64,000 bases of DNA from an uncultured Acidobacteriota bacterium (GCA_963713825.1 CAVQNG010000005.1:490778-554777); one strand, 5' to 3'; shown: positions 22,037 to 46,136, counted from the stretch's first letter. Made by a program: numbers and translations. The notes: generated from the letters alone by a model not told the origin.

Positions 22037-25000
22037 GTGATGAAGGCAGCTGTCTACATTCTCTTCCTGTTATCGGGCGCCTGCGGCCTGGTGTACGAAG
22101 TCGTCTGGTCTCGGATGCTGACCCAGATCTTCGGCAGCACGGTGATCGCCGTTGGGACTGTGCTGGCAGCATTCATGTGTGGCTTGGCCCTAGGAAGCTA
22201 TGCCCTGGGCAAGCGTGGAGACAGGAGCTCCAACCCTCTTCGGCTATACGCCTCCTATGAGCTGGGGATCGGTGCTTCGGCACTGGTCTCCACGCTTTTG
22301 ATGGGTAGAGTGGAGTGGCTGTATCTGTGGTTGTACGGGGTGGCAGGTGGATCGGCGGCACTTTTTGGTGCTCTTCGATTCGTGTTGGCTTTCGGCCTGG
22401 TCTTCGTTCCCACCTTCCTCATGGGCGCAACGCTGCCGCTCTTGGCCAGATTCGTAATCACGCGGCTTTCGACGGTCGGGACTCATCTCAGCACGCTGTA
22501 TGCGATCAACACGGTCGGAGCCGTGGCAGGCAGCACGGCGGCCGGGTTCTATTTGATCGGTACCTTTGGGATTCATCGATCGGTGTTCTTGGCGGTTGTC
22601 TGCAATCTCGGAATTGGTCTTATCGCTTGGATCATGTCAGCGAGACCTGGCGACGAAGAGATGGAGGTCCCGTCTCAGGCCATCGACAGTTCTCCACCGG
22701 TGGTCTCTTCACCAGGGGAGCGACCGGACGAAAGCGCCAGGGTACTTCTCTGGGCCTTCGGCCTAGCCGGTTTCACGTCGTTCGCCTACGAGATCTTCTG
22801 GACCCGCTCGCTGGTCCATCTGCTTGGCAACTCAACTTACGCCTTCACGATGATGCTTTCGGCGTTCCTGATTGGGATCGCTCTTGGTGGATACCTCATT
22901 CGCTTTGTCATCGGTCGAATCTCGGACCGCTTGAAGTGGTTCGCCGGGCTTCAGCTTCTGATTGGCCTCTCTTCTGCTGCGGCCCTACCGGTAATGTTCT
23001 CGATCCTCGAGTCCGAGGCGTTGTCTGGATTCCTGTTGAGGATGTCGAACGACCTTGGGGCGCTCATGGTGTCGCGCTTCGTGACAGCGCTGCTGATCAT
23101 GTTGGTCCCAGCTACCATGATCGGTGCCTTGTTCCCGTTGGTGGGGAGCATCTATGTCCAGGACTTGAGGCGAACCGGTTCCGATGTGGGTAAGTTGTAT
23201 GCCGTCAACACAATCGGCAACGTGTTCGGAGCCCTGGCACCGGGTTTCGTCCTACTTCCGATCTTCGGAATCCAGAAGGGCATCGTCCTGATGGCTGCCC
23301 TCAATGTGTCGATTGGCCTCTACGTGTTTCTTCTCGGCAGCAAGAGTGCCGCGAGGCTTCGATACGGAGTCCCAGTCCTGTTTCTGCTTGCTGTTGTGGT
23401 GCTGTCTAGAGCAGATTTCGATTTCCGGTTCCCAGCCGAGCATGAGACGCCCAACGACAGGGTTCTCTACTATCGGGAGGGAGTCTCAGGCACAACCAAG
23501 GTGTTCGAGGAGCCCAGTACCGGCGAAAAGAGGATGGCCATCGATGGCATCGTGATCGGCGGGACTGAGTTCACCGATTACAAACAACAGATTCTGGCTC
23601 ACTTGCCCAAGCTGCTCTTGAAGGAGTTCGATTCGGAGCTCTCAGTTGGCCTGGGCTCAGGGATACTGCTTGGAGAGAGCCTTCGCCACCACGGCCTGGA
23701 GAGGCTCGTCTGTCTGGAAATCGAGCCGAGCGTACTGGAAGGGGCTGCATACTTCGAAGAGGAGAACTACGGAGTCCTGGACGATCCGCGAGTCGAGATC
23801 GTCATCGATGATGCCAGCAACTACCTACGAACGACTGCCGAGGAGTTCGACATTATCTCGGCGGACGAGAAGACCGCTGACAAGTACGCTTCCAACGGGT
23901 TCTCGTACTCGAGCGATTACTATCACCAGCTGAGGGAGCACCTCTCCCCGAACGGTCTGGTCGTGCAGTGGATACCCAACCATATCCCGGCAAGCCAGTA
24001 CCGGATGGTGCTCAGGACCTTCGCCGAGTCGTTCCCCCACGTTACCGTCTGGTACTTTCCGCCAGCTGGAAAGGGAGGGCCAGCGAACACGATCGTGACA
24101 GGGTCTGTTCAAGAGCTCGAGATCGACTTGAACTGGATGAACAAAGTCCTGCAGGACGATCCGGAGGCGTTCGACGGCTGGAGGAAATACGGAATAGCCA
24201 ATGGCGAGGAGATCCTGGCGCACTACATTTCAGACAGGTCAGCTGTTCTCAATGCCACGATCGGTGCCAAGGAGAACACTCTAGAGCACCCCTACTACGA
24301 GTTCTATTCGCCAAGGGACTACTCGACATCCGTCAATGCGAGAACGCTGGAAAGTCATGACTTCTTGATGATCTTGCGCGCGGCAGATGGGCCTGATGGT
24401 CTTGCGCAGCGTCTCCCAGGACCTGTGGGCCCGAGATTGAGTGCGGCCATCGAGGCAGAGTACGAGTTCCTCTTGGGTTTGAGGAAGGAGTTGCAAGCGA
24501 GGCCACACGAAGAGGTCGCTGCCGCTTTCGAAGCCGCACTGACCATTGCGCCCTGGAACGCGAACCTTCGCAGCCAGATTCTCTCCTACCTTTGGACCGA
24601 AGCCGGAAATGCCTTCTTGGCTGGCGATTTTGCGTGGGCTCTGGACCGGATGCGCGAAGCGGCCGAGGTCTACCCCGAGAATGGAGAAGTCCGGTACTAC
24701 TACGGGCTCACCCTCTTGAACACTGGGCAGCCTGAGCAGGCGATCCAAGAGATGAAGGATGCGATTCTCCGCAACCCCAGGTTGATCGCTCCTCGACGTC
24801 ATCTTGCCTCGCAGTATCTGGCCAACGGTAGGTTCGAGGACGCCGCGATTCAACTGCAGGGTGTTCTTGTCATCGACCCTGAGGACCTCTTCTCTTTGGT
24901 GACGTACGCTGCATTGTTGGCGGAGAAACAGGCTGACTTTGCGGCGGCCGGACGACACCTGGAAGTGGCGGAGCAACTTGCCCCTGGCGACCCGTCGGTG

Positions 25001-25141
25001 ATCGATGCGCGAGCCTGGGTCGCCCATCTGAGTGGAGACCGGAACGAGGCTCGCCGAATTGTCGAGGAGGGTGGTAGCTACTACTTGAGCGATGCCTTGT
25101 TCGAGCAACGTCGGAAGGCGATCTTGGGAGGAGCACCATGA
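22037..25141 (+). CDS. Fused membrane domain/spermidine synthase-like protein with C-terminal TPRs
   Basis: SGACGLVYEVVW, LYAINTVGA, VGLGSG SAM-binding motif, LEIEP, TPR tail. Confidence 0.88.
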   Translation: MMKAAVYILFLLSGACGLVYEVVWSRMLTQIFGSTVIAVGTVLAAFMCGLALGSYALGKRGDRSSNPLRLYASYELGIGASALVSTLLMGRVEWLYLWLYGVAGGSAALFGALRFVLAFGLVFVPTFLMGATLPLLARFVITRLSTVGTHLSTLYAINTVGAVAGSTAAGFYLIGTFGIHRSVFLAVVCNLGIGLIAWIMSARPGDEEMEVPSQAIDSSPPVVSSPGERPDESARVLLWAFGLAGFTSFAYEIFWTRSLVHLLGNSTYAFTMMLSAFLIGIALGGYLIRFVIGRISDRLKWFAGLQLLIGLSSAAALPVMFSILESEALSGFLLRMSNDLGALMVSRFVTALLIMLVPATMIGALFPLVGSIYVQDLRRTGSDVGKLYAVNTIGNVFGALAPGFVLLPIFGIQKGIVLMAALNVSIGLYVFLLGSKSAARLRYGVPVLFLLAVVVLSRADFDFRFPAEHETPNDRVLYYREGVSGTTKVFEEPSTGEKRMAIDGIVIGGTEFTDYKQQILAHLPKLLLKEFDSELSVGLGSGILLGESLRHHGLERLVCLEIEPSVLEGAAYFEEENYGVLDDPRVEIVIDDASNYLRTTAEEFDIISADEKTADKYASNGFSYSSDYYHQLREHLSPNGLVVQWIPNHIPASQYRMVLRTFAESFPHVTVWYFPPAGKGGPANTIVTGSVQELEIDLNWMNKVLQDDPEAFDGWRKYGIANGEEILAHYISDRSAVLNATIGAKENTLEHPYYEFYSPRDYSTSVNARTLESHDFLMILRAADGPDGLAQRLPGPVGPRLSAAIEAEYEFLLGLRKELQARPHEEVAAAFEAALTIAPWNANLRSQILSYLWTEAGNAFLAGDFAWALDRMREAAEVYPENGEVRYYYGLTLLNTGQPEQAIQEMKDAILRNPRLIAPRRHLASQYLANGRFEDAAIQLQGVLVIDPEDLFSLVTYAALLAEKQADFAAAGRHLEVAEQLAPGDPSVIDARAWVAHLSGDRNEARRIVEEGGSYYLSDALFEQRRKAILGGAP

Positions 25142-26874
25142 GAACTGTCCGGGTCGTTGGTGCCGCCTTGGTGGCTCTCTTGGCGCTGGTGGTATACGCC
25201 AATACCCTGCTCAATGGCCTCCACGTCGACGATCAGCAGCAGATCGTCGACAACCCGTGGATCCGCGACCCCACCGCCCTTGGCGAGATCTTCACGTCAG
25301 GCGTCTGGGACCACGCAGGCCGGGTCTCCAGCTATTACCGACCCGGGATGTTCCTGCTCTACATGGGTACGTTTCTGCTCTTCGGATTGCAGCCCTGGGC
25401 CTTTCATCTGCTCAACGTGACTCTTCACGTAGGGGCGTCAGTCCTGGTGTACCTGATCGTCTGGCGGTTGTCGTTTCAAAATCAGGACCCACATGCCGAC
25501 CCAGACCAAGGGAAACAGTCGCTGGTCGCGATGCCATCTCTGGCTGCTGGAGCGCTTTTCGCGACTCATCCCATTCACACAGAGTCCGTGGCCTGGGCCG
25601 CAGGGGTCACGGATGTCTCGTTCAGTCTCTTCTTCTTGCTGGCGCTGTACCTGTATATCAATTCTCGACAAACCTGGATCTCTATCATCGCTTCAGCGGT
25701 CGCGTTCTTCGCTGCTCTCTTATGCAAGGAACCGGCGATCACACTACCGGTGGTGCTAGTCGCCTACGATCTCTTCTTACGCCGCGAGAAGTTCTCGCTC
25801 GGTCGCTGTGCTCTGCGGCAGGTGCCATACGTTGCAGCCATCGCCATCTACATGGTGTTGCGAGTCCAGGCCTTGGGAGGCTTTGCGCCGGTGAGCACCG
25901 AGGCCTCATTCACGTTGTACCACTACGTGATCAACGTCATGGCCCTGTTCTCGCGCTACCTCGAGGCTCTGGTCTTGCCTCTGAATCTCAACTTCTGGCA
26001 TATCTTCCGACCGGTTACGAGCCTGGCCTCGCCTACCGGGATCAAGTCCATATTGGTGGTTTCCGCCTTTCTGGGTCTTGCCTTGCTCGCATGGAGAAAG
26101 AGCCGAGCCGCTCTGTTCGGATTGACTCTGCTGGTCGTACCTCTGCTACCTTCATTCCATGTGTCAGCCCTGAACCAGGGACTCGAGAACGCTTTCGCCG
26201 AGCGTTACCTCTACCTGCCTTCCGTCGGCTTTGTGATCGTGATTGCAGCGTTTCTCGCCTGGGTCAGCATCAACCGACCCCAGTGGAGACGCTTGCTGAT
26301 CGTGATGGTTGCCGTTGTTGTCGTCGCCTACTCGGTGACGACAATTCGCCGGAATGTAGTATGGAAGGACGCGTTCAGCCTCTGGTCGGACGCGATCAGC
26401 AAATCACCTCAGAGTGCCGTGGTGCAGATGAACTACGGGTTTTCCCTCATTGGCCGGGGCGAGGTGAGCGCCGGGCGCGAGCATCTCGAGAAGGCTCGAG
26501 AGCTCGATCCCGCCCGAGTCGACCTCAAGATCCAGAATGGCATCGCCTATGCCGGTCGCGGCAATATCAAACAGGCGATCCTGGAACTCAGTGCAGCCCT
26601 GGAGCTCGACCCCCAGTCGGTGATGGCTCACTACAACATCGCAATTCTGTTCGAGAAACTGGGCTGGATGGACGAGGCGATCCAGCACTACGAAAAGGCC
26701 CTCGCTCTGGCGCCGGACTTCGCTGATGCCCACAACAATCTGGGCATCCTGTTTGCTGAAGATGGAGATCTGGTGAATGCAGGGCTTCACTTCGAGACAG
26801 CCGTACGACTCGATAGCACCCATCCCGAGTACCGGGCCAACCTCGAGCGGCTCCGGAGCCTGGAAGGTCGGTAG
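25138..26874 (+). CDS. TMTC-like GT-C glycosyltransferase with TPR repeats
   Basis: VDD..IVDNP, YYRP, HPIHTESVAW, CKE, AERYLYLPS, AHNNLG TPRs. Confidence 0.88.
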   Translation: MRTVRVVGAALVALLALVVYANTLLNGLHVDDQQQIVDNPWIRDPTALGEIFTSGVWDHAGRVSSYYRPGMFLLYMGTFLLFGLQPWAFHLLNVTLHVGASVLVYLIVWRLSFQNQDPHADPDQGKQSLVAMPSLAAGALFATHPIHTESVAWAAGVTDVSFSLFFLLALYLYINSRQTWISIIASAVAFFAALLCKEPAITLPVVLVAYDLFLRREKFSLGRCALRQVPYVAAIAIYMVLRVQALGGFAPVSTEASFTLYHYVINVMALFSRYLEALVLPLNLNFWHIFRPVTSLASPTGIKSILVVSAFLGLALLAWRKSRAALFGLTLLVVPLLPSFHVSALNQGLENAFAERYLYLPSVGFVIVIAAFLAWVSINRPQWRRLLIVMVAVVVVAYSVTTIRRNVVWKDAFSLWSDAISKSPQSAVVQMNYGFSLIGRGEVSAGREHLEKARELDPARVDLKIQNGIAYAGRGNIKQAILELSAALELDPQSVMAHYNIAILFEKLGWMDEAIQHYEKALALAPDFADAHNNLGILFAEDGDLVNAGLHFETAVRLDSTHPEYRANLERLRSLEGR

Positions 26875-26913
26875 AGAACAGGGCAGCAGTCAGGCCAAGT
26901 AGCTGTTGGGCCT

Positions 26914-27819
26914 CTACTGGACGATCTCGAATCGCTGCACCCGGTTATTTCCCCGATCCGCAACGAACAGGTAGTCGCCACTGGTGGCCAGGCCGGTGGG
27001 ATAGCGAAGGAAGCCCTCTCTCCAACCGAGCTGCGACTGGCGACCTTCGAACGAGCCGTTCTGGCCGACGATGACGATGCCGCCGCCGGACTTGTCGGCG
27101 AGGTACAGATGCCCCCAGGTATCCGCGGCGATGGCCGTAGGAAAGGCCATATCTTCTGTCATGGGCTCAGTCACGGCCGCCAAGATCTCATCGTCCTTCG
27201 AGGCGGAGAAGACCTGTTTGTTGCTGGTGTCGATGGCGAAGAGGACGCCTGTCGAGGTGACCGTCAAATCGGAGAGAAATCCGACCTCTGGCGGGAACGC
27301 TATCTGACGCACGACGGCGCCTCCGGGATCCAGGACCACGATCTTGCCTGCAGAGATATTCAGTAGGTAGAGATTGTCGCGGCTGTCGATCGCAAAGCTG
27401 CGGAGGATGGTCTCCTCCTGCCGGGAATCGACCGGTACCTCCACGAAGCTCTTGAACTCACCAGCAGCCGTCAGGCGGGCCAGGCGATGTGACTTACCAT
27501 CCAGCGCCAGAATCTCCCCTTTTGAATCGATACCGACCCGGATTGGAAAAGGCACTTGAGCCAGGCGAACTTCGTCCCGCGGCTTGAACCCTTCTTTGAG
27601 CTGGTCGAAAATCACCAATCGGCGATTGCCGGTGTCGGCTACCACCAGAACAGACTTGCCATCGGAAGCTACTCCCTCGGGCTTGTTGAGAGCGGCACCC
27701 ACTGCGTCGACATAGATCGCGTTCGTGGGTCGCAGGCGAACCGTTTGCGCGAGCGAGTGCGATGCGGTTACGACGGCCAGCGTCAGAGCTAAGAAGAGAA
27801 CTCGTTGGTTTCTCGGCAT
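26914..27819 (-). CDS. NHL-repeat beta-propeller protein
   Basis: Signal peptide, PEGVA..VVADTGNRRL, FVADRGNNRVQRF. Confidence 0.85.
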   Translation of the reverse strand: MPRNQRVLFLALTLAVVTASHSLAQTVRLRPTNAIYVDAVGAALNKPEGVASDGKSVLVVADTGNRRLVIFDQLKEGFKPRDEVRLAQVPFPIRVGIDSKGEILALDGKSHRLARLTAAGEFKSFVEVPVDSRQEETILRSFAIDSRDNLYLLNISAGKIVVLDPGGAVVRQIAFPPEVGFLSDLTVTSTGVLFAIDTSNKQVFSASKDDEILAAVTEPMTEDMAFPTAIAADTWGHLYLADKSGGGIVIVGQNGSFEGRQSQLGWREGFLRYPTGLATSGDYLFVADRGNNRVQRFEIVQ

Positions 27820-27826
27820 TACGGGG

Positions 27827-29086
27827 TTACCTCGCAACCTGCTGGTGGCAGGAAACACAGAGATCGCCTGCGGGATCGAGATGCGACAGAGCTTTGAAAG
27901 GCGAGCCATGGGACCGGTGGCAACTCAGGCAATCGAGGGTCAGGTTCATGTTGCGCTGGTCCACGATCTCGTCCCCGAGGGGATGGGAGGAGTGCTGGCG
28001 CCAATCATGACAGGAGCCACACAGTTCGTCGACGCTCTCGTAGTCCGACAGAAACACATTGTCCGCCGCGTGGGGTGCATGGCAGGCGCTGCACTCACCA
28101 TCTTCGACTGGCTGATGTCTCGAGGCATCCTCTCCCAGATGGGCAGTGCTGTCCTGATGGCAGTTGGCGCACAACTCCTTGCCCGGTGCGATCAGCAATC
28201 CCGTTTCATTCGAGGCATGGGGATTGTGACAATTCAAGCAGGCGGTCTCGTCGGCAACCGGCCAGTGGAGCCGGTTCTTGTTGAAGGCGGCATTCAAGAC
28301 ATCGCTGTGACAGCCGCGACACAGCTGTGCGCCTGTCGCTTTCAATTCCAGCGCGTTGGGCGAGGAAGCTTCCAGGTGACACTGGTTGCACATCTTGTTG
28401 GTGAGCGGGGCGTGAACCTCGGCCAGCATGAGGCCCCCGTTGTTCGAGCCGTGCGGATCGTGACAGGAAGAGCAGCGCGAGTCTGCAACTGGATAGCCCA
28501 TGTGCTGTTGGGAAAACGAGGCCTGAGTGGTGTTGTGACAGGACTTGCACAGAGCTTCCATATCCTGTTTCAGCAGAGACCCGGCCTTGGTCGAGGCATG
28601 AGGGTCGTGGCAAGTGAGGCAATTCTGCCGCACTGGAGCGTGCCCGAACTCGCTCTGCTCCACGGTAGCCGCGATCTCCTCGTGGCAGCTGTAGCAGAGT
28701 TGATTGCCACCAGCGACCAGGACCTTGGGGTTTTGCGAAGCGTGGGGATCGTGGCAGGTAGCACAGTTGCCCTCGAGCACCGCTTGATGGATGCTCACCG
28801 CCTCTTCAGGAACGATGTCTGAATGACAGGTGGAGCAGATGGTGCTCGCATCGGAGTCCAGCAGCTGGCCGTGCGACGCCGCATGAGGATTGTGGCAATC
28901 GGAGCAATCGCCAGCTTTGACTGGTGTGTGCACGAAGGGCAACTTGATCTGTTCCTGGACCGTGACGTGGCAGTCGAGACAAAGCGCGCCCTTCGCACCC
29001 GTCTTCAAACGGTACGGATTCTGGGAAAAGGCTGCTGCCGGTAGGATCAGCAGGCCGATAAGAACGATCTTCCAGCGTAGGCGCAT
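27827..29086 (-). CDS. 16-heme c-type cytochrome (doubled-CXXCH family)
   Basis: Signal peptide MRLRWKIVLIG; 16 CXXCH counted; H.PV...CxxCH.PH pattern. Confidence 0.93.
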   Translation of the reverse strand: MRLRWKIVLIGLLILPAAAFSQNPYRLKTGAKGALCLDCHVTVQEQIKLPFVHTPVKAGDCSDCHNPHAASHGQLLDSDASTICSTCHSDIVPEEAVSIHQAVLEGNCATCHDPHASQNPKVLVAGGNQLCYSCHEEIAATVEQSEFGHAPVRQNCLTCHDPHASTKAGSLLKQDMEALCKSCHNTTQASFSQQHMGYPVADSRCSSCHDPHGSNNGGLMLAEVHAPLTNKMCNQCHLEASSPNALELKATGAQLCRGCHSDVLNAAFNKNRLHWPVADETACLNCHNPHASNETGLLIAPGKELCANCHQDSTAHLGEDASRHQPVEDGECSACHAPHAADNVFLSDYESVDELCGSCHDWRQHSSHPLGDEIVDQRNMNLTLDCLSCHRSHGSPFKALSHLDPAGDLCVSCHQQVAR

Positions 29087-29097
29087 CTCGAGTCCCT

Positions 29098-31068
29098 CTA
29101 TTCCTGATCGACGAAATGGCAGTCTTCGCAGGACCTTGCGGCGAAGGGGGCGTGGGCCTCCTCCTTGAACATCTTGGGATCCTGCGAGGAATGGGGAGCA
29201 TGACAGCTCATGCAATTCATGACCCCCGGGTCGATGTATACGTGAGCGTAAGCGAAACTGTCGGATTCCAGATTGTGACACTCACTGCAGAGCGTTGTGG
29301 TGTCCTTGCTCAACAGCGGAATCTGCTCAGAGAAGTGCGGCTCGTGGCACCTCTGACAGTCCCTGGCCGCCGGGTCATGCGCCACTTCCGAGTCCATTCT
29401 TGCCTTCAGGTCCTCGTGGCAGGCGGCACAAAGGTCCGGACCCTGGGCCAGAAGCAGGGCCGAGGATTTCGACTTGTGCGGATTGTGGCACCCGGTGCAT
29501 TGGCCTGCCGCCAGTGGCTCGTGTTGGCTGGCGGCTTCCTGCATGCCGTCACCGACATCCGAATGACATTCGATGCAGAGCTCGTCCTCGGCTTTCACGA
29601 TCATGCCGACTTCGTTACTGGCATGGGCGTCGTGACAACCGAGGCAATCCCCGTCTTCGAACGGATAGTGGGTGGTGCCGGCCGTTTCCGGCTTCAGCAG
29701 ATCCGCATGGCAGTCGGCACAAAGGGCCGAGCCGGCCTTCTTGAGCAGGCCCGCCTCTTCGGCACCATGCGCCGCATGACAGGCGACACAATCGCCGGTC
29801 AGGACCGGTTGATGAACATTGGACACCTGGTAGCTGAGCTCGGCGTCTCCGTGACACTCGAAGCAGACTCGATCGGGGCGGTCATTGAGGATGGCCACGG
29901 AGTTCGAGCCGTGCGGGTTGTGGCACGAAGCGCACATCCCGTCGACGTAGGGCATGTGCTCGGCCGCTTGCCCCGTCTCCGGCTCGCCGTGGCAGCTGGA
30001 GCAGAGCGCTGCACTTTCCTCGACCAGGAGACCTTCATGGGTCGCGGTGTGCGGTGCGTGGCAGGATCGGCAACCATCGCCGTCCGTCAGGGCGGCGTGA
30101 CTATTGAGAACCTCTTGTCCCTGCTCCGAGTGGCACTCGACACAGAGCAGATTGCCCTTGCGGGCCAGGAGAGAGGGGCTATCCGCGGCGTGGGGGTCGT
30201 GGCAGCCTTCGCACATGCCGGCGCCGAAGGGCTCATGCATCACAGAGCCCATCTCGGACAATCCGGACTCGTCGTGGCACTGGAAACAGAGGGAGCTACC
30301 GCCCTCGGTGAGCTCGAACGGAGTCGAGGAACCGGCTGCCTCATGGCAGGAGTCACAGGCGGCCTCGGCCACTGGAGCGTGAACGCTGGCCCTGAGTAGG
30401 GCGGGTTGAGATGCGGAATGAGGATCGTGGCACAGAGCGCAATCGGACGACTCGACAGGATAGCCCTGATGGGATCCTGCAAACCCGGCGTCGTTCGCCT
30501 CATGGCAAGAGAGGCACAAGGGGGTCGCTGCACTCGTCAGGAGATCGGGAAAGTCCGAGCTGTGAGCCTTGTGACACGCACCACACCCCTCGTCTCGCAG
30601 CACCTCGTGCACCACTGGCTGTTCGAAGTCTGCTCTGTCGTGACAGACGAAGCAGGCCTCGGCTCCCGAGGAGCCCAGAAGGTGTTGGCCCTGCGAAGCG
30701 TGTGGGTTGTGGCACGAAGTGCAATCGGTGCCGCCGAGAAGGGCGGTATGGACATGGGCCTTCTGCAATCCGAGAGACTCCTGGTCATGGCACTCGTAGC
30801 AGAGCTGATTGCCTTGCTTCTTCAATAGCAGCTTGGGCACGAGGCCGTGTCTCAGGTGACAGGTCTCACAGTTACCGTCCTTCATGCCAGGATGCTGGCT
30901 CTTCATTCCGCGGTACTGCTGCTCGAACTCGGCATGGCAGTCGGCGCAGTCTTTCGAGCCCCCCAGCGACCGTCGCTTCTGGGCCAGGGTCGAATCGCTT
31001 GCACCCAGTGCCAAGACGGTCCAGATCAGCAACAGGACACCAAGGCGGGTCGTTCTTTCTCCGTTCAT
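29098..31068 (-). CDS. 26-heme c-type cytochrome (doubled-CXXCH family)
   Basis: Signal peptide; 26 CXXCH counted. Confidence 0.93.
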   Translation of the reverse strand: MNGERTTRLGVLLLIWTVLALGASDSTLAQKRRSLGGSKDCADCHAEFEQQYRGMKSQHPGMKDGNCETCHLRHGLVPKLLLKKQGNQLCYECHDQESLGLQKAHVHTALLGGTDCTSCHNPHASQGQHLLGSSGAEACFVCHDRADFEQPVVHEVLRDEGCGACHKAHSSDFPDLLTSAATPLCLSCHEANDAGFAGSHQGYPVESSDCALCHDPHSASQPALLRASVHAPVAEAACDSCHEAAGSSTPFELTEGGSSLCFQCHDESGLSEMGSVMHEPFGAGMCEGCHDPHAADSPSLLARKGNLLCVECHSEQGQEVLNSHAALTDGDGCRSCHAPHTATHEGLLVEESAALCSSCHGEPETGQAAEHMPYVDGMCASCHNPHGSNSVAILNDRPDRVCFECHGDAELSYQVSNVHQPVLTGDCVACHAAHGAEEAGLLKKAGSALCADCHADLLKPETAGTTHYPFEDGDCLGCHDAHASNEVGMIVKAEDELCIECHSDVGDGMQEAASQHEPLAAGQCTGCHNPHKSKSSALLLAQGPDLCAACHEDLKARMDSEVAHDPAARDCQRCHEPHFSEQIPLLSKDTTTLCSECHNLESDSFAYAHVYIDPGVMNCMSCHAPHSSQDPKMFKEEAHAPFAARSCEDCHFVDQE

Positions 31069-32858: not shown

Positions 32859-32870
32859 CCTTGCGGGTGG
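32830..32870. promoter_or_regulatory. Tandem CYACCC-N4-GGGTRG sites upstream of the PPIase gene
   Basis: ATACTC-TGTT-GGGTAG (32830) and CCACCC-TTGC-GGGTGG (32855). Confidence 0.55.
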
Positions 32871-34734: not shown

Positions 34735-34774
34735 GGCTAGGCTCCTTCGGCAATCGGGCGCTGTCTGTCTCACC

Positions 34775-38699: not shown

Positions 38700-38736
38700 C
38701 GTCGAATGTTGCTGGTAGGCCCTTCGAAAAGGCCCA

Positions 38737-39729
38737 CTACCTCTCCTCGGAAAGTTGATCGGCGGGGGTTGGGTCCATCGGAGTCAGACGAAAGACCGCG
38801 ACGCCCTGGCCCCGGGCTTGGGTGACGTAGAACTTTCCCTCTTCTCCCATGACGAGGTCTGTAGGGCGGGCCAACAGACGGTCCCTCGCCTTGGAGAATT
38901 CGGTCAGGAACCGCAGGGTCTTGTCGAACACCATCACGACATTGCGGAGCTTGTCGGCGATCAGGATATTGCCGTGGTCGTCGGCGATGATGCCGGAGAC
39001 AATGCCGAACTTGCCGGGCGCTGAGCCGGCCATGCCGAACTGTCGCAGCTCACCATCAGGCGACACGACATAGGCCTTGAAATTGGTCGGGATCGTGAAG
39101 AGGATGTTCCCCGCGGGGTCGATATCGAGACCGAAGATCTCTTCGCTGGCCGGATCCTCGAGTTTCGCCAGTTGTGCCAGATCATGACTCTGTTGGTAGG
39201 CTCCTGATCCATCCACCGTCACCACCTGATGTTGACTTCTGCTGGCAAGAGTTACGAGTCCATCTCGATAGAAGAGAGCGTTGGGTCCGAAGTCCTCGAG
39301 CTCTGCCGGCAGACCGGTCACTTCCAGGCGTTCGATCGGGGTGCCGCGATAGTCGCAGCGGGAGAGCCACCACTGCCTTGTCTCGTCCGGTGTCTGGAGC
39401 GCTGTTTCCATGGGCTCGTAGGTTAGAAGCAGAAGGTCGCCCGAGTCCTCGACCACGAGATCGAGGATCTGCCCCAATGCAAGATCGACTTCGAAACGAT
39501 AGACCTCCATTCCGGTACTACTGAAGATCCGGACAGAGTTGCCCAGCGAGCCGTAGATTTCATCGCGTTGGCGGTCGATGTGGAGAATGACGTCGCTGTA
39601 CGGGACCATACCGCTGAAATCGGAGAGGTTGTAAAGGTAGGCTACCGTGACCTCCGGAGCCCCGGACAGGGCTCCCGAGGCGGCCAGGCCGAGGCAGATT
39701 GCGAGTCGAATGGTCGTGGTGAAGCGCAT
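38737..39729 (-). CDS. NHL-repeat/6-bladed beta-propeller protein
   Basis: Signal peptide MRFTTTIRLAICLG; FGMAGSAPGKF, ILIADKLRNVVMVFD. Confidence 0.82.
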   Translation of the reverse strand: MRFTTTIRLAICLGLAASGALSGAPEVTVAYLYNLSDFSGMVPYSDVILHIDRQRDEIYGSLGNSVRIFSSTGMEVYRFEVDLALGQILDLVVEDSGDLLLLTYEPMETALQTPDETRQWWLSRCDYRGTPIERLEVTGLPAELEDFGPNALFYRDGLVTLASRSQHQVVTVDGSGAYQQSHDLAQLAKLEDPASEEIFGLDIDPAGNILFTIPTNFKAYVVSPDGELRQFGMAGSAPGKFGIVSGIIADDHGNILIADKLRNVVMVFDKTLRFLTEFSKARDRLLARPTDLVMGEEGKFYVTQARGQGVAVFRLTPMDPTPADQLSEER

Positions 39730-39871
39730 CGAGTGCCAGGCACGCCGCTGTCCAGTTCTGCACGAGCGGCGCTGCGGAACTCTACAGGAATCGGCACTCT
39801 GGCTCAATTTGGCACGACGTGCTGGAGTACCACGATCGGGCGCCGATTGGGTATGGGCTCCGAGCGAAGGC

Positions 39872-39904
39872 AAAAAGAGGGGCTGGCTTTTCAGCCAGCC
39901 CCTT
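39872..39904 (-). terminator. Rho-independent terminator after omcS
   Basis: Minus strand AGGGGCTGGCT-gaaa-AGCCAGCCCCT followed by CTTTTT. Confidence 0.85.
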
Positions 39905-39946
39905 CGAGAACTCTGGTTGAGCTCTACGATCAGTGCACGTGTTCGA

Positions 39947-41239
39947 TTAGTCCTTGAGATGGCACTTGTTGCAGAGCACGCGCTGGTGTCCAGCGAACTC
40001 CTGCTGTGGCGGCCGGCCGTAGTAGGTCGCTGCCATCTGACCGACGGTGTAGCCGCGGTTGAACTGACCCTGGTTGCCGAGGCCAGCGTTGACACCCGGA
40101 TAGACCGGCGTAGCTGGGTCGCCGAGGGTCAGGAACTCTGCCTCGCCGTTCCAGCGGAGGATGTACTTCCAACCGCCTGCATGGGCCCGGTGGCAGGTCA
40201 TGCAATTCATGCGGTCGCCACCAGCAGGGCCGGTCAGAACAGTACCGTCGTTGTTGGCCAGCGCGGCCAGCGTAGCGATATCCGTCGTGCTGGTCGAGAA
40301 CGGCACCAGCGAGGTGAAGGAATCGGCCACGTTACCCGTCAGGTCACCGGTCTTGACATAGGCGTTGTAGTTGTTGGCTTCGTTGCCCAGAGTGTCATCG
40401 ACAGGATGGACCGTGCCGCCAGGAGCGCCTGGAGTGTCGGTGTGCATGCCGGTGTGGCAGGTGGCGCACCACTTGCCCCACGACGCGAACCCTGTGGTAC
40501 CGCCGTTTGCGAAGCCGTAGGCAACGCGAGTCGGATTGGGCGACTCGTTGCGATTGTAGTCGTCAGGCACGACTGCTGCGGGGGCGCCAGGGAAAGCCGC
40601 CGGAACGCCAGAGGCCTGGTAGCCGTTAGCGCCGAGGAGACGGTAGGTGCCGACAGCAGAGCCGGCCGCAGGAATCGCACCGTAGGATCCCGAGTCCACG
40701 ATCGGCGGGAAGGTCGTGCCGATCGTCGGGAAGATGACCGTTCCGGTGGAGTCAATGCGCCCGCCACCATGCGGATCGTGGCAGCTCTGGCAACCGAGCT
40801 GGCTGGATGCCATCGTGCCGCCAGGTGCCGTTAGATTCGTCGTGTCAGCGACGTAGGCGTTGTCGGCAGCGATGATGTTGTGGCCGCGCGTTTCGCCATC
40901 GTTGGTGATCGGAGCGTAGTAGGTAGCGGTGGCGGTGAGATCCTGACGCAGCCAGCCGAAGTCACCACCCGGTGTGCGCTGGACGACGATGTCTGTGTCA
41001 TTCGTCAGCTCAGCGGCCGGCGTGCTGATGTGGTAGCGGGTCGGGCCGGTATCGCCCGCGCTCTCGTGGCAGGACAGGCAGGTCGAGCTCTGGTCGGTAG
41101 CGACCAACAGGAAGCTCGCGCTCTCTGCGCTGTGCATGCTGTGGCAACCGGAGCATTCTGCGACGCCGCCATCATGGAAGGCGAGGGCGGGCGCGGCCAG
41201 GATCGCTACGGCGGCCAGTAGTAACAGGGTTTGTTTCAT
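39947..41239 (-). CDS. omcS: OmcS-family hexaheme nanowire cytochrome (430 aa)
   Basis: Signal peptide then FHDGGVAECSGCHSMH, TPGGDFGW, GHNIIA, APGG, C-terminal QRVLCNKCHLKD; 6 CXXCH; AAGGAG RBS. Confidence 0.93.
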   Translation of the reverse strand: MKQTLLLLAAVAILAAPALAFHDGGVAECSGCHSMHSAESASFLLVATDQSSTCLSCHESAGDTGPTRYHISTPAAELTNDTDIVVQRTPGGDFGWLRQDLTATATYYAPITNDGETRGHNIIAADNAYVADTTNLTAPGGTMASSQLGCQSCHDPHGGGRIDSTGTVIFPTIGTTFPPIVDSGSYGAIPAAGSAVGTYRLLGANGYQASGVPAAFPGAPAAVVPDDYNRNESPNPTRVAYGFANGGTTGFASWGKWCATCHTGMHTDTPGAPGGTVHPVDDTLGNEANNYNAYVKTGDLTGNVADSFTSLVPFSTSTTDIATLAALANNDGTVLTGPAGGDRMNCMTCHRAHAGGWKYILRWNGEAEFLTLGDPATPVYPGVNAGLGNQGQFNRGYTVGQMAATYYGRPPQQEFAGHQRVLCNKCHLKD

Positions 41240-41316
41240 TTCGCTTCTCCTTTGTTGATTAACCGTTCTATAACGGTTGGTTTGTGTAGTTGCAATTCCC
41301 ATTCGAGGGTCTATAC

Positions 41317-41332
41317 AGCAAGGGGCGTGCCA
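41317..41332 (-). promoter_or_regulatory. Sigma54 -24/-12 promoter of omcS
   Basis: Minus strand TGGCAC-GCCCC-TTGCT, exact consensus spacing. Confidence 0.88.
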
Positions 41333-41515
41333 GGTCGAGGCGCGCAGGGCAGCAGAAGGGCCTCTTGGACAGATAGATAGCTGTGCATGGAAATAAAGTC
41401 CCCAATTCCTTCGACTTAGGTCGCCAAGGCTCTCGATGCCACGCGAGTAGGATCTTGGTGGCGGTGGATTCTGCAGTCGTCTACGGCGGTAAGAGTACGG
41501 TCGTCGGGTTCCCTG

Positions 41516-41533
41516 GTGGGGAATATTCCCCAC
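41516..41533. promoter_or_regulatory. Perfect 18-bp palindrome, candidate enhancer for a sigma54 activator
   Basis: GTGGGGAATATTCCCCAC about 185 bp upstream of the -24 box. Confidence 0.55.
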
Positions 41534-41546
41534 TTTGGGGCTGACA

Positions 41547-41564
41547 TTGTGAAATTTTTCACAA
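41547..41564. promoter_or_regulatory. Rex operator
   Basis: TTGTGAA-ATTT-TTCACAA, perfect Rex consensus. Confidence 0.75.
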
Positions 41565-41661
41565 GCACTGAAGTGAGGACTAGGGCCCAAATAGGGAGGA
41601 TGCGGATTCGAGTCCGACCGGGTCAGCCGGGCCCAGAAGGATCGGATCAGAAGAGTTCGAC

Positions 41662-42057
41662 TCAAGCTTGAGGCGGTTTGTCGCTGTTGGCCTGGTGCTC
41701 GCTGCAGCGCACGAGTAGCTCGAGCTGTTCTCGAAGATCGGAGGTATGGTAGGGCTTCTCGATGAAAAAACAGGAGTGATTCAAGGGCCCCAGGCCGGCC
41801 TCCTCGGCGCTGCGGAAGACGCAGGATTCAAACAGCACGGGTATTTTTGGCGAGTGGCCCTGGCAGACGTCCTGGAACTGTCTCCAGGGTAGCCCGTCGG
41901 GGCCGATGTTGGCGATCACGGCTTCGGGAGGTCTGCTTTCGAGCGCCTTCAGTGCGGCGTCGAAGGTCGCGACTTCCTCCAACTCGATCTTCCCATCCAG
42001 AATTCTCTGAATCAGGGAAACCAGAAGATGGCTACCATCCAGAACGAGGAATCGCAT
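41662..42057 (-). CDS. Atypical stand-alone receiver-domain protein
   Basis: MRFLVLDG, PEAVIANI (Asn at the phospho-Asp position), FIEKPY. Confidence 0.7.
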   Translation of the reverse strand: MRFLVLDGSHLLVSLIQRILDGKIELEEVATFDAALKALESRPPEAVIANIGPDGLPWRQFQDVCQGHSPKIPVLFESCVFRSAEEAGLGPLNHSCFFIEKPYHTSDLREQLELLVRCSEHQANSDKPPQA

Positions 42058-42095
42058 AACTCCCTCCCGTGGCGCTAGAGACCTATTGATACTCG

Positions 42096-42111
42096 TGCAA
42101 ATATCGTTCCA
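42096..42111 (-). promoter_or_regulatory. Sigma54 -24/-12 promoter
   Basis: Minus strand TGGAAC-GATAT-TTGCA, about 40 bp upstream of the receiver gene. Confidence 0.65.
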
Positions 42112-42296
42112 AGGGCTTAGGAAGCGATGTGGGTGGGCGCAACCCATTGTGACCCTCGTTGAGGGAGCGCTGACTGAGGGATGGAACGCGCGTCAAGAGG
42201 GTCTCTGGTTCGGGCAATGGGCCGAGCCCGGTACCAGGAGTGCTCATTCCCTTGTCGAGCGTGAGCTCGAATACCTCTTTCCGCGGTGGACTGAGG

Positions 42297-42941
42297 TCAG
42301 GGTATCTGCGGGGACCAGTTGGAGGTATCGCCGGTCTCGAATCCGTCCTGGAAGATCGAGTTGCTCGTTGGGTCGAAGTCGAAGAAGACATCATCGACGA
42401 TCAGCGTGCTTGCGTCGGCGATATCTGTTTCGACCTGCAGCTGGAGATTTACGGTCTGGCCGGCATAGGGAGCGATGTCGACAGTGCGAAGGGTCCAGAT
42501 CGATGTGTTGATCCCCGCGTGCAATTGGAACTCGTCGACCTCGACGCCGTTGACAAGCAGCCGCGCGAAGTCGAATCCCAGGTGGGAATCCACGGAACCA
42601 ACCTGGAACCAATACTTGAGGCTCGGTGAGCCGGCAGGGACCATGATGCTCTGCTCGATGGAAGCAAGTTCGTTGTTGGCGATCCCGAGAACGGCCCCCC
42701 AGTTGCCGCTGTGGGCTGTGATGGACAGCGTTCTGAGGTCTCGGATCAGGTCCAGTCCCTGGACTGAAGACTCGGTCCAGACCTTGGCGCCCTGCTCGAA
42801 GTTCCCGTTGGGGAGGGGCTGGGTGTCGTTGGGAGTTATGGTGCTGCCACTGTTGACCCTCTGGCCTGGTCGGAACGACCCGGGCTCGCGAGGCTTGCGA
42901 CAGTGGCCAGAATGATGGCCGCGACGGCGATCCATGTCCAA
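42297..42941 (-). CDS. Beta-sandwich extracellular domain with C-terminal IFQDGFETG motif; 5' end unclear, possibly a remnant
   Basis: PNGNFEQG...AHSGNW...YAGQTVNL...VDDV; no signal peptide. Confidence 0.55.
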   Translation of the reverse strand: MDMDRRRGHHSGHCRKPREPGSFRPGQRVNSGSTITPNDTQPLPNGNFEQGAKVWTESSVQGLDLIRDLRTLSITAHSGNWGAVLGIANNELASIEQSIMVPAGSPSLKYWFQVGSVDSHLGFDFARLLVNGVEVDEFQLHAGINTSIWTLRTVDIAPYAGQTVNLQLQVETDIADASTLIVDDVFFDFDPTSNSIFQDGFETGDTSNWSPQIP

Positions 42942-43037: not shown

Positions 43038-43076
43038 ATACCCTCGGGGGTGGATTCCGCCCACCCGATCAGGTAG
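43038..43076. promoter_or_regulatory. Tandem CYACCC-N4-GGGTRG sites
   Basis: ATACCC-TCGG-GGGTGG (43038) and CCACCC-GATC-AGGTAG (43061). Confidence 0.55.
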
Positions 43077-43082
43077 GTGGAG

Positions 43083-44449
43083 CTAGCTGCCGAGATCGAA
43101 TTTCTTGAGGCGGTAGCGGAGCTGGTCGCGGGTGACGCCCAAGAGCTCGGCGGCGCGGGTCTGGTTGTCGCCGGTGGCGGCCATGGCGCGGGTGACGAGT
43201 TGGCGCTCCATCTCTTCGAGGGGGACGATCGGGGCTTCCGACGCCTGCGACATGCTGCCGCCGGCGCCGGTCGGGTCCATGCCCAGCTCGTTGAGAACCA
43301 GAGCTGACGGCTCGATCCAGGGCGATTTCTCGAGGATCATGGCGCGCTCGACGACATTGCGCAGCTCCCGAACGTTGCCAGGCCAGGAGTAGGAGAGGAG
43401 GAGGTTCTCGGACTCGCGGCTGAAGCCCTTGAATTTGCGGCCCATCTTGGGCTGGAGAGTCTCCAGGAAGTGATTGGCGAGGGGCAGGATGTCCTCCGGC
43501 CTCTCGCGCAGAGGTGGCACCCGGATAGGGAAGATGCTCAGGCGGTAGAAGAGGTCCTGCCGGAAGGTGCCCTCTCGGACCATGGAGGCCAGGTCCCGGT
43601 TGGTCAGGCCGATGACTCGCACGTCGACCTGGATCTCCCGAGAGCCACCGACCCGGCGCAGCCTCCTTTCTTCGAGCACGTGCAGCAGCTTGGCCTGGAG
43701 CTCCAGCTTGAGCTCGCCGATCTCGTCGAGGACGACGGTGCCGCCATCGACCAGCTCGAAGGCGCCCTTGCGGGTCTCCTTGGCGTCGGTGAAGGCGCCG
43801 CGCTCGTGGCCAAGGAGCTCGCTTTCGATGAGGGTGTCGGGCAGCGCCGCGCAGCTGATCTCGAGGATCTGCTTCTTGTGGCGATGGGCGAGAGCGTGGA
43901 TATAGCCGGGCGAGGACGTTCTTGCCGGTGCCGCTCTCCCCTTCGATCAGAATGGTGTCGATGTCGGATCGGGCGACCTCGTTGACGACCTCGAGGACGC
44001 GGTTGCAGGCATCGGATTCCGACACGATGTCGACTTGGATCTCGCGCTCCCGGGTCTGGCGGGCCGCCTGGACCTCCAAGTGCTCGCTGCGGATGGTCAG
44101 GGACTTCTCGATGAGCTTCACCAGATCGGCCTGGTCCACGGGCTTGCCCAGGAAGTCGATGGCGCCGAGCTTCATGGCGCGGACGGCTTCTTCGATCTGG
44201 CCGACCGCTGTCATGACGATGACTACCGTGTCCTCGAGGCGGCGGAGATTGCGCTCGAAGAAGTCGAGGCCGTTGCCGTCGGGCAGGGAGATGTCCAGCA
44301 GTAGGACGTCGGGTTGGTGGTCGTCGAGGTGCTCCCTCGCAGTGGCCAGGTTTTCGGGCATCGTGGACGTCGTGGCCGACGCGCTTGAGCTGCTCGGTCA
44401 GGGCCCAGCGCAGGAGCTTCTCGTCTTCGACAATCAGGATCAGGGCCAT
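43083..44449 (-). CDS. NtrC/AtoC-family sigma54-dependent response regulator; frameshifts near 44358 and 43905
   Basis: ILIVEDE, LLDISLPD, GESGTGK, ESELLGHERGAFTDA, WPGNVREL and a Fis HTH spread across three frames. Confidence 0.88.
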
Positions 44450-44483: not shown

Positions 44484-46136
44484 TCAGGCTCTTCGGCCAC
44501 TCGGGGGCGGCTCCTCAGTCTCTTCCCCAGGGAGAATCAGATAGAAGTTCGTGCCCCTGCCGACCTCGGAATCGACCTGCAGCGTACCACCGTGCTGCTC
44601 GACCAGGCTGCGGGCGATGGCCAGCCCGAGGCCTGTCCCTGAGAACTTGGTGGAGAAGAAGGGCTCGAAGACACGCTTGAGTTGTTCGGGTGGGATGCCG
44701 GGGCCGTCGTCTTGCACCGCCAGCACGATGCCGCCGCCTTCTGGGAAGTCGCTGGCACGAACCGTGACGGTCCCGCCGTCCTCCATGGCTTCGGCGGCAT
44801 TCTGGATGAGGTTGAGGAGGACCTGCCGAATCTTCGAGCCGTCGACCTGGGCCTCCAGGGGGCCGTTCGTTAGATCCAGCTCGAGTGCGACATTCTGCCG
44901 CCTCAGGCCTGGGGCCATGAGGATTCGAACCTCGTCGAGGAGCTTGTTGAGGTCTGTGGTCGCCAGGCGAGCGGGCCCAGGGCGTGCCGAGCCCAGCAGG
45001 CTGCGCAGCGTTCCATTGACCCGCTTCAGCTCGCTGAGCATTTCGTCGAAGAGCTCTTTGTTAGATTCGCTCTCCGACGGGTCTTCCCGGAGGATCTCCA
45101 GAGCGCCTTGAATACCGGCCAGCGGGTTCTTGATCTCATGCGCCAGGCCCGCCGCCAGGCGACCGAGGCTCGCCAGCTGGTCGGTGTGGGCCAGCTTGGT
45201 GGCGACCTCGGCTTGCCGTTGCCGCTGCCGACGCAGGAACTGCTGCAGCGACTTTTGTAGCTCAGCGGAGTGCGGGTCGAGAACCAGCCTGTGGGCACCG
45301 GATGCGGGTCCCTCTCCCGACTCGGCGGCGGCCAGCTCCTCTTCGAACTTACTGGAAAAGCGTTGCACGGATCGGCGAACTAGAGCGTTGATCCCACCCA
45401 GGGCGGCGGCCCAGGCTAGGATCAGGAGAGCGAGATTGCGGCGGGAGTGGTTCCGTACATCTCTGAGAGATTTCGTGACATCCATGCTCATCGAAGCGAC
45501 GGCCAGGGTCTCGCCGGCGGCGTGGCAGCGTACACACTCTTCGGTTGCGATGACCTTACTTAGCCCGCGGATCAGCTCCTTACCATCTTCCTCACTTAGC
45601 CAGACCCGCTCCAACTGAGGGCTCGGTAGGAGGCTCAGAATCGCGTCACGCTCCTGCTCGGTGACCAGTGGGTCCGAGCCGATAGACCTTCCATCGGGGA
45701 GGAGCAGTCTGAGCCCGACGACATAGTGCTCAGCCAGAACTGCTTCGAACATGTGGCGCAGCGTGCCGGAGCCAGTGTGGGCTACTGCGATCTGATTCAA
45801 CTGCCGAGTAGCAGCACTCAGTCTTTGCTGTGCTGACTCACGTGCGAGCCCCGCAACCTCGATTTCCGTGATGCGGGCCGTCGCGATGTAGAGAACCCAG
45901 AAGGCGAAAACATGCAGAGGTAGGGTGACCAGCCAAAAGCGGCCTCGGCGGGCCATGAAGGTTCGGAATCGGGCCCGCTTGCCCGGCTTGGGCAAGATCT
46001 CTTCTGTGTGATCGGAGATATCGATCTCAGGGATCTCGCCGCCGGCTGCACCGGCTTCGGAGACTCCGGACTCGGCCCCGGGCACCCCGGATTCGACTTT
46101 TCGGTCGACGGGTCCCTCTGGTTCCTGAGAGGTCAT
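44484..46136 (-). CDS. Sensor histidine kinase with a periplasmic CXXCH heme motif
   Basis: Two TM helices flanking CVRCH; LAHEIKNPL, NLIQNA, DDGPGI, GTGLGL. Confidence 0.92.
   Translation of the reverse strand: MTSQEPEGPVDRKVESGVPGAESGVSEAGAAGGEIPEIDISDHTEEILPKPGKRARFRTFMARRGRFWLVTLPLHVFAFWVLYIATARITEIEVAGLARESAQQRLSAATRQLNQIAVAHTGSGTLRHMFEAVLAEHYVVGLRLLLPDGRSIGSDPLVTEQERDAILSLLPSPQLERVWLSEEDGKELIRGLSKVIATEECVRCHAAGETLAVASMSMDVTKSLRDVRNHSRRNLALLILAWAAALGGINALVRRSVQRFSSKFEEELAAAESGEGPASGAHRLVLDPHSAELQKSLQQFLRRQRQRQAEVATKLAHTDQLASLGRLAAGLAHEIKNPLAGIQGALEILREDPSESESNKELFDEMLSELKRVNGTLRSLLGSARPGPARLATTDLNKLLDEVRILMAPGLRRQNVALELDLTNGPLEAQVDGSKIRQVLLNLIQNAAEAMEDGGTVTVRASDFPEGGGIVLAVQDDGPGIPPEQLKRVFEPFFSTKFSGTGLGLAIARSLVEQHGGTLQVDSEVGRGTNFYLILPGEETEEPPPSGRRA

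Follow-up and report, generated by a model that had tools for sequence, protein, structure and literature searches.

An osc-type gene cluster around an OmcS-family hexaheme cytochrome of separate lineage, probably from an acidobacterium

Can a bacterium outside Geobacter make OmcS-type cytochrome nanowires with a gene cluster of its own? This question is raised by a 64,000-nucleotide stretch of DNA (CAVQNG010000005.1:490778-554777; "the window" refers to this whole stretch), in which a preliminary description had placed a nanowire locus at positions 22037..46136. The type of cluster in question, termed osc, was reportedly defined by Shen et al. 2025 (Cell Chem Biol 32:239), a study whose title presents the machinery as widespread and ancient. 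In Geobacter sulfurreducens, the cluster comprises omcS, omcT and oscB to oscK (GSU2504-GSU2493), with omcS assigned to GSU2504, omcT to GSU2503, oscC to GSU2501, oscI to GSU2495 and oscJ to GSU2494 (gene names as given in the accessible text of PMC13194489); the lettering of the window genes follows this source. The locus in the window is almost certainly an osc-type cluster, and filament formation by the hexaheme c-type cytochrome predicted from it is plausible.

Gene order was compared in a sample built on the OscD-like propeller protein, for which 65 full-length database clusters, the window's own included, were found as relatives. After alignment of 39 full-length relatives, one genome per GTDB species was scanned with a single peptide pattern; this non-exhaustive scan matched 90 stretches, 52 of which encoded a relative, giving 49 loci. 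The 41 loci with a near-full-length OscD relative are the basis of the locus counts. Scoring by tblastn of 16 window proteins against the loci, which include Geomonas, Geotalea and Geobacter strains, revealed that collinearity with the window extends from OscD onward in 40 of the 41. Where the downstream flank measured 9.9 kb or more (30 loci), the genes for OscD to OscK were complete and in the same order in 25 cases; the five exceptions are two loci that exhaust their flank after an insertion (L016, L039) and three that end at OscG (L018, L020, L027). Because the same order recurs this often, the arrangement is not due to chance, and the gene set and order shared with the related loci, with the OscD-to-OscK types following one another beside an OmcS-family gene, identify the osc cluster as proposed at the outset.

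The 41 loci were labelled Thermodesulfobacteriota (13), Myxococcota (12, several of them titled just 'Deltaproteobacteria bacterium'), Nitrospirota (6), Deferrimicrobiota (1), Acidobacteriota (1) and Bacteroidota (1), and seven had no phylum. The Bacteroidota label is doubtful because the hexaheme and OscD of this locus (L004, 'Bacteroidota bacterium') are almost identical to those of L003, 'Deltaproteobacteria bacterium GWA2_54_12'. At the head of the cluster, the order NHL-like gene, hexaheme gene, oscD was found in 31 loci, and the order hexaheme gene, NHL-like gene, oscD in the window as well as in L022, L023 and L028, all from Geobacteraceae. A hexaheme gene in the oscC position, directly upstream of the OscD-type gene, was not found in the window, where the NHL-like gene intervenes. 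According to the accessible text of PMC12977616, all Geobacter genomes with the eight-gene block GSU2500-2493 contain a GSU2501-like hexaheme gene, and not all contain omcS.

The OmcS-family gene of the window (39947..41239, minus strand) encodes the 430-amino-acid hexaheme precursor announced in the preliminary description, with six CXXCH motifs. As read from the translation, the precursor starts with a Sec-type signal peptide of 20 amino acids (MKQTLLLLAAVAILAAPALA, ending ALA) followed by Phe1 as mature residue; the mature protein has the N-terminus FHDGGVAECSGCHSMH (FHDGG) and the C-terminus QRVLCNKCHLKD. The mature part opens with [FYL]H.GG in all 48 hexaheme open reading frames (ORFs) from the loci and the window, and the extended start [FYL]H.GG..C..CH.[MIV]H is likewise present in 48 of 48. 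A phmmer search of the PDB chains with the hexaheme returned the OmcS filament subunit 6ef8_A (E 4e-88, 299.5 bits) as its single distinct match and aligned query residues 21-430 with residues 1-407 of the 407-residue chain, i.e., over its full length. Twelve histidines were invariant in all 74 aligned rows of the family (H22, H33, H36, H58, H120, H154, H157, H262, H278, H350, H353 and H427), which is enough ligands for six bis-His hemes. Among the twelve is mature His16, which we take, from the structure of OmcS, to be the inter-subunit heme ligand in the filament. The conservation of His16 had thus been seen correctly; as a sign of filament formation it fails, since a residue that is invariant across the whole family marks family membership and does not single out filament formers.

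The position of the window hexaheme within the family was analyzed by a quick maximum-likelihood tree of 67 hexahemes, from which the broken copy L020_6187 was omitted; for OmcS, OmcT and GSU2501, which were outside the tree, bit scores against the PDB chain 6ef8_A were used instead. The window hexaheme fell into a clade of 14 rows with a Shimodaira-Hasegawa-like approximate likelihood ratio (SH-aLRT) of 100 that otherwise consists solely of database proteins, all 46 locus hexahemes of the tree falling elsewhere. Its nearest relatives are the proteins P0003 (79% identical) and P0004 (76%), and the four taxon-named members of the clade are labelled Polarisedimenticolia (P0034, P0041), Acidobacteriota (P0049) and Saccharimonadales (P0064), the last label being odd for a cluster of Gram-negative type. 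Against 6ef8_A, the osc-linked hexahemes of a Myxococcales bacterium (L025), Geomonas (L013), Deferrimicrobium (L002) and Geobacter sp. H2geo (L028) scored 493.5, 398.2, 392.0 and 372.6 bits, respectively, compared with 299.5 bits for the window hexaheme and 211.2 bits for that of a Desulfuromonadales metagenome-assembled genome (MAG; L041). In the accessible text of PMC12977616, Geobacter sp. H2geo is placed in the GSU2501-like clade 3A, and the G. bemidjiensis group, which we take to correspond to Geomonas, in clade 3B beside an omcS. From the lower score than those of four other hexahemes and the separate clade, the predicted protein is an OmcS-family member of its own lineage and not an OmcS orthologue, so that the name OmcS given to it earlier has to be withdrawn. 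The family as a whole comprises 158 clusters at 50% identity (E up to 1e-30), or 551 at E up to 1e-3.

Besides 39947..41239, no other hexaheme-type ORF was found in the 64-kb window, in agreement with the single omcS-like gene reported before. The suggestion that a one-copy cluster is a minimal version did not hold, as a single intact hexaheme is the common state: of the 28 loci whose upstream flank reached 5 kb or more, 20 had one, five had two, two had three and one had none. A second 430-amino-acid ORF (43069..44361, minus strand) does not encode a cytochrome; by Pfam it is the front part of a sigma-54 regulator.

The gene inventory given earlier for 22037..46136 proved right in that every listed gene is present, with four corrections. 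Eleven genes lie consecutively on the minus strand between 26.9 and 41.3 kb, and the accessory genes of this run, all on the minus strand, are as follows. Next to the hexaheme gene is a candidate NHL-like beta-propeller gene (38737..39729, 330 amino acids), with sub-threshold Pfam matches to NHL (E 0.076) and SBBP; we infer its OscB letter from its position, and homologues adjoin the hexaheme gene in 34 of the 41 related loci. The gene at 37296..38699 encodes a YVTN/YncE beta-propeller of 467 amino acids (Pfam YNCE, OscD-like), and that at 34775..37015 an outer-membrane beta-barrel of 746 amino acids (Pfam OMP_b-brl and a structural model, OscE-like). Two smaller proteins follow, an OscF-like lipoprotein of 206 amino acids with the lipobox LWGC (34153..34773; 45-57% identity across loci) and an OscG-like two-domain GNA1162/PelC-like protein of 406 amino acids (32943..34163). 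The gene at 31065..32858 encodes a SurA-like periplasmic peptidyl-prolyl isomerase (PPIase) chaperone of 597 amino acids (Pfam Rotamase_2, SurA_N_2/3 and Rotamase, OscH-like). The OscI-like periplasmic cytochrome (29098..31068) has 26 CXXCH motifs in 656 amino acids, with Pfam Paired_CXXCH_1 in 13 stretches, and corresponds in this to GSU2495, a protein of approximately 70 kDa with 26 hemes (PMC12977616, accessible text). The OscJ-like cytochrome (27827..29281; likely start MRLRWK at 29086) has 16 CXXCH motifs and is assigned by Pfam; both heme counts agree with those stated before. The run ends with an OscK-like NHL-repeat protein (26914..27909, 331-amino-acid ORF). Of the two NHL proteins claimed originally, this one is well founded (Pfam NHL, E 3.4e-19), while the other is the sub-threshold candidate at 38737..39729. 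From OscE through OscK, the genes are spaced by 1, -11, 84, -4, 11 and -83 nt, and with such short or overlapping gaps this run looks like an operon. All OscD-to-OscK-like genes are open, and none of the eleven cytochrome and osc-like genes is interrupted or shortened compared with its relatives.

The two small proteins had been termed CsgG-like. Neither has a Pfam CsgG match; the best Pfam assignment for both is GNA1162-like, with 22.1 bits for OscF and 19.4 bits for OscG, each under the cut-off of 25.9. The AlphaFold2 (AF2) model of OscG (pLDDT 79.5) has two tandem alpha/beta domains, and the top Foldseek matches were PelC chains (E 7e-9, template-modelling score (TM) up to 0.81 on the target, 15-18% identity), with GNA1162 at rank 20 and CsgG at rank 25 (E 6e-5, TM 0.38). 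The CsgG family was rejected for OscF and OscG as GNA1162 is nearer by Pfam for both, and PelC and GNA1162 are nearer by fold for OscG. In the PelBC exporter (PDB 9H80, 5T10, 5T11), a ring of PelC lipoproteins lies under the PelB porin. Each OscG domain matches the PelC fold in the model, and OscG would likewise be a small periplasm-facing protein encoded beside an outer-membrane barrel. It differs from PelC by its two tandem domains and by a sequence identity of 15-18%, and the cargo would be a heme protein and not a polysaccharide; the likeness to a ring is one of predicted fold. The AF2 model of OscE (pLDDT 86.1) is a barrel with about 28-30 long strands, interrupted around residues 267-415 by a beta-rich domain. 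This insert is conserved across 27 sequences with the consensus NPALxDGN...VWVDR...RYIKVVV...IFVTELQAF. The top PDB match of OscE was MtrB (6r2q_B; TM 0.33-0.36, root-mean-square deviation 14.9), closely followed by TonB-dependent receptors and ushers.

The hexaheme gene is followed, 44 nt past its stop codon, by an intrinsic-terminator-like hairpin (39878..39903, minus strand) with a U-run, in which 8 of the 11 stem base pairs are G-C; its folding gave a z value of -4.56, with none of 200 shuffles equally stable. Such a hairpin is present 3' of 28 of the 48 hexaheme genes (loci L001-L041 and window) and is rare behind the other osc genes (NHL-like 0/34, OscD 1/40, OscE 0/34, OscG 0/30, OscH 0/27, OscI 0/26). 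This is the layout expected for an over-produced subunit, and we infer that the hexaheme would be made in large excess over the assembly proteins. Upstream, a sigma-54 -24/-12 promoter-like site (TGGCACgccccTTGCT; 41317..41332, minus strand) matches the consensus exactly, 78 nt before the hexaheme ATG. Window-wide, three such sites were found at up to 1 mismatch, with 1.77 expected, which is not above chance. A conserved sigma-54 promoter as a feature of the family was rejected, the strict motif being found upstream of 1 of 47 related hexahemes. A sigma-70-like promoter was not found in 26500..42500.

The proposed sigma-54 regulator gene is present upstream, with its reading frame broken once. 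It encodes an NtrC-type sigma-54 activator (43083..44361, minus strand) with REC, AAA+, lid and HTH_8 domains, assigned by Pfam on two ORF pieces; three-frame reading located one frameshift just after Walker A and found the other domains intact. Next to it lies the gene for a sensor histidine kinase of 550 amino acids (44484..46136, minus strand; Pfam HisKA and HATPase_c), and homologues of kinase and activator occur upstream of the cluster in several loci. Elsewhere in the window (59886..60671, 60723..61436 and 61560..63404, minus strand), a sugar (RbsA-like) ABC ATPase is encoded in two half-length ORFs, and a permease and a substrate-binding protein appear fused in one ORF of 614 amino acids. 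Since these genes are split or fused in the manner of assembly indels, the activator frameshift may be an assembly error as well, and together the cases suggest that the assembly contains erroneous indels.

A riboswitch upstream of the window hexaheme was rejected: no Rfam family matched at gathering score in the whole window, and none in 41100-42400 at E up to 1, while the riboswitches of L040, L013 and L028 were found as a positive control. In L040, a c-di-GMP-I-GGC riboswitch aptamer (L040:8392-8471, plus strand; 62.6 bits, gathering score 59) lies directly upstream of the osc-linked hexaheme gene. As judged from these predicted elements, the control of the hexaheme gene differs between lineages, with a riboswitch in L040 and none in the window. 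The omcS gene of G. sulfurreducens presumably has a GEMM-type riboswitch, and in this respect, too, the window differs, being without an Rfam riboswitch upstream of its hexaheme gene.

Taken together, a complete osc-type cluster would make and export a filament-forming hexaheme in six steps. The hexaheme gene would be transcribed strongly and separately, possibly from the sigma-54 promoter, with most transcripts ending at the hairpin. The precursor would be exported by Sec and matured with six c-type hemes, as indicated by the signal peptide and motifs seen in its sequence; Sec export and heme maturation follow established c-type cytochrome biogenesis. In the periplasm, the SurA-like PPIase (OscH-like) and the propellers may handle the hexaheme, in keeping with the roles proposed with reference to Shen et al. 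2025, namely folding for OscH, secretion for OscE, OscF and OscG, and morphology for OscD (PMC13194489, accessible text). From this secretion role and the likeness to the PelBC fold, the hexaheme would cross the outer membrane through the OscE-like barrel, served on the periplasmic side by the PelC-like OscF and OscG. Outside the cell, a heme wire would arise by head-to-tail joining of subunits, each contributing its His16 as a ligand to a heme of the next, and the 26-heme and 16-heme cytochromes would pass electrons through the periplasm to the wire. By this reasoning the organism may build conductive filaments; we regard the whole chain, polymerization included, as evenly balanced between right and wrong.

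Several observations weigh against this scheme. OmcS of G. sulfurreducens is given as the sole hexaheme known to polymerize in the accessible text of PMC12977616, and His16 and the other axial histidines, being family-wide, are uninformative on which members polymerize. By bit score against OmcS, the window hexaheme ranks fifth of six, with four of the five other osc-linked hexahemes scoring higher. G. sulfurreducens itself (GSU2493-2504) lies outside the loci returned by the scan, in which other Geobacteraceae are represented; although the window OscD itself fits the peptide pattern, the best OscD identity among the genome-scan loci was 45%, and the window's own species was not among the matches. 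OscE is without a close solved relative, its best match, at low TM, being MtrB, the porin of a porin-cytochrome conduit. The sigma-54 site is a single match, with its like upstream of 1 of 47 related hexahemes, and the activator frameshift, if real, may mean that expression is off. A complex prediction for two mature hexaheme copies (residues 21-430) with four hemes, run without controls, scored 0.01 and 0.02, where the mark was 0.42, and carries no weight in either direction.

The hexaheme could, instead of polymerizing, be a monomer or small oligomer at the cell surface or in the periplasm and act as terminal reductase of a conduit in which the OscE barrel encloses, or sits above, the 26-heme and 16-heme cytochromes. 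We consider this rather unlikely. It would fit the best solved match of the OscE model, since MtrB is the porin of the Mtr conduit, and the finding that the window hexaheme is not close to OmcS. It would also accord with partial accounts in the literature: the cluster was possibly secretory before OmcS arose, and the functions of OmcS homologues are left open (PMC12977616); OscC is listed as predicted periplasmic (PMC13194489); and acidobacterial OmcS-like clusters are read as candidates for electron exchange with metal oxides (PMC8528874), in each case according to the accessible text. However, the MtrB match is weak and generic, with TonB-dependent receptors and ushers nearly as good, and PelC-like ring proteins together with a SurA-like chaperone are more in keeping with protein export than with a static conduit. 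Moreover, the terminator that follows the hexaheme gene suggests a product in large excess over the other parts.

A silent or decaying locus whose dedicated sigma-54 activator is broken appears improbable. The activator has its one frameshift right after Walker A, and the sole promoter-like site before the hexaheme is of the sigma-54 type; on the other hand, every cytochrome and osc-like gene is intact, as described above, and the frameshift may be an assembly error like the RbsA-like halves and the permease-binding protein fusion.

The source of the DNA was deduced from the neighbourhood of the cluster. The PFOR gene (48512..52105), located approximately 2.4 kb past the kinase gene, has as its best relative a protein 96% identical and labelled Thermoanaerobaculia bacterium; among its 120 matches listed, the eight taxon-named relatives were Thermoanaerobaculia (6), 'Acidobacteria bacterium' (1) and Phycisphaeraceae (1). 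Thermoanaerobaculia and Ca. Polarisedimenticolia are classes of the Acidobacteriota (NCBI taxonomy). The PFOR identity and the labels in the hexaheme clade make an acidobacterial host very likely, probably one of the Thermoanaerobaculia/Polarisedimenticolia kind, and with seven of the eight taxon-named matches listed falling in the Acidobacteriota, the earlier guess of a non-Geobacter, acidobacterial host is supported. A weakness of this assignment is its basis in a single flanking gene and in the source labels that database proteins carry. The IFQDGFETGD motif in the ORF at 42297..42941, which has a weak MAM-like Pfam match, was not used as a host marker. In the window, rRNA, tRNA or other Rfam families were not found. 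In the OscD tree, the window forms an isolated long branch and is not sister to L040, the one acidobacterial locus with a full cluster.

That the cluster is not acidobacterial, either because the contig is chimeric or because the cluster was acquired recently from Desulfobacterota-like bacteria, is very improbable: among the genome-scan loci, the window osc proteins are nearest to the Deferrimicrobium-type group (OscD 45%, OscF 57%), L040 is not closest (OscD 32%) and G+C is 0.57-0.59 at 22-28 kb versus 0.60-0.65 in the rest of the window, but the dip is small, the window OscD is not nested in the group of another phylum, the hexaheme groups (SH-aLRT 100) with Polarisedimenticolia- and Acidobacteriota-labelled proteins in a clade without any Desulfobacterota-type locus, and the PFOR beyond the regulators is 96% identical to a Thermoanaerobaculia-labelled protein.

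All flanking genes named in the preliminary description (spermidine synthase, TPR, sigma-54 regulator and kinase) were found by Pfam. A TPR protein of 578 amino acids (25138..26874, plus strand; Pfam TPR families) faces the end of the cluster, and beyond it lies the gene for a spermine/spermidine-synthase-like membrane protein of 1034 amino acids with C-terminal TPRs (22037..25141, plus strand; Pfam Spermine_synth, TPR and weak MFS_1). Homologues of the TPR protein occur beside the cluster in 9 of 41 loci, and those of the spermine-synthase/TPR protein in or beside it in 5 of 41 (L016:3971-6310, L041:7109-9370, L028, L033 and L034); in L016 the gene sits between the OscE and OscF genes. Both may be part of the system. 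Between the hexaheme and the activator are a small ORF of 161 amino acids, or 131 from the second Met (41662..42147, minus strand), with weak likeness to a receiver domain (Pfam Response_reg, E 0.24) and no NCBIfam match, and, upstream of the cluster, the 214-amino-acid ORF at 42297..42941 with its weak MAM-like Pfam match, likewise without an NCBIfam match. At a greater distance, a GSU2203-family decaheme (14369..15304, plus strand; 345.5 bits, cut-off 325) and a GSU2204-family CXXCH (seleno)protein (15317..17065, plus strand; 452.8 bits, cut-off 350) form a second Geobacter-type electron-transfer module at 14369..17065. The intergenic region 13167..13964 holds direct and inverted copies of a REP-like G-rich element (TGAGGGCTTGGGGGTTGA...) of approximately 20-60 nt, and the hydrogenase maturation genes hypE, hypD and hypF at 578..5452 (minus strand) are all over their NCBIfam cut-offs.

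Compared with OmcS of G. sulfurreducens (PDB 6EF8/6NEF), the window hexaheme is of the same family over its full length, with six hemes and all axial histidines. The accessory types are also the same as in the G. sulfurreducens osc cluster: propeller, barrel, two small PelC/GNA1162-like proteins, PPIase, 26-heme and 16-heme cytochromes and NHL protein. The differences are one hexaheme instead of three, its location upstream of the NHL-like gene with none between the NHL-like and OscD-like genes, a distant sequence (299.5 bits) and a different host phylum. Geobacter sp. H2geo (L028) is similar in having a single hexaheme with the block, and the order hexaheme, NHL-like, OscD is common to it and to L022 and L023; its hexaheme belongs to a different clade, and the window proteins are 27-50% identical to those of L028.

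The preliminary description had implied that an osc locus outside Geobacter would be new. This is not supported in view of the 41 public loci over several phyla and of the acidobacterial OmcS-like clusters published in 2021 (PMC8528874, accessible text). In the MAG AM4 of Ca. Polarisedimenticola svalbardensis, two six-heme OmcS-like cytochromes are reported to share their clusters with genes for periplasmic cytochromes and beta-barrels (Flieder et al. 2021, PMC8528874, accessible text). As far as this description allows a comparison, the window shares with AM4 the phylum of the host, the six hemes and the periplasmic cytochromes and barrel nearby, and its hexaheme clade holds Polarisedimenticolia-labelled proteins; AM4 has two such cytochromes, whereas the window has one. 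In the literature linking Thermoanaerobaculia with OmcS, nothing besides the work of Flieder et al. 2021 was found, and for OmcS nanowires and Acidobacteriota no study of such a cluster was evident by title or abstract, an mBio paper naming the phylum solely as tree outgroup. The locus is a clean, compact example of a known, widespread cluster, from a lineage absent from the scanned genomes.

We tentatively propose that Acidobacteriota of the Thermoanaerobaculia/Polarisedimenticolia type carry an old filament-machinery lineage of their own, with a hexaheme wire differing from OmcS, export through a 28-30-strand barrel with PelC-like proteins, and a two-component sigma-54 switch instead of a cyclic-dinucleotide riboswitch. 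Two by-products may be of wider use, namely the terminator hairpin found family-wide behind the hexaheme gene and the assignment of the small Osc proteins as PelC-like and not CsgG-like. Which features decide on polymerization of a hexaheme is stated to be an open question in the accessible text of PMC12977616; if the proposal is true, the window would provide a second, distant OmcS relative with a complete and compact accessory set from which to learn what decides it. Cytochrome nanowires would then be a trait of abundant sediment Acidobacteriota, and, if the filaments form, a group of this phylum that is common in sediments would join those capable of long-range extracellular electron transfer through cytochrome wires.

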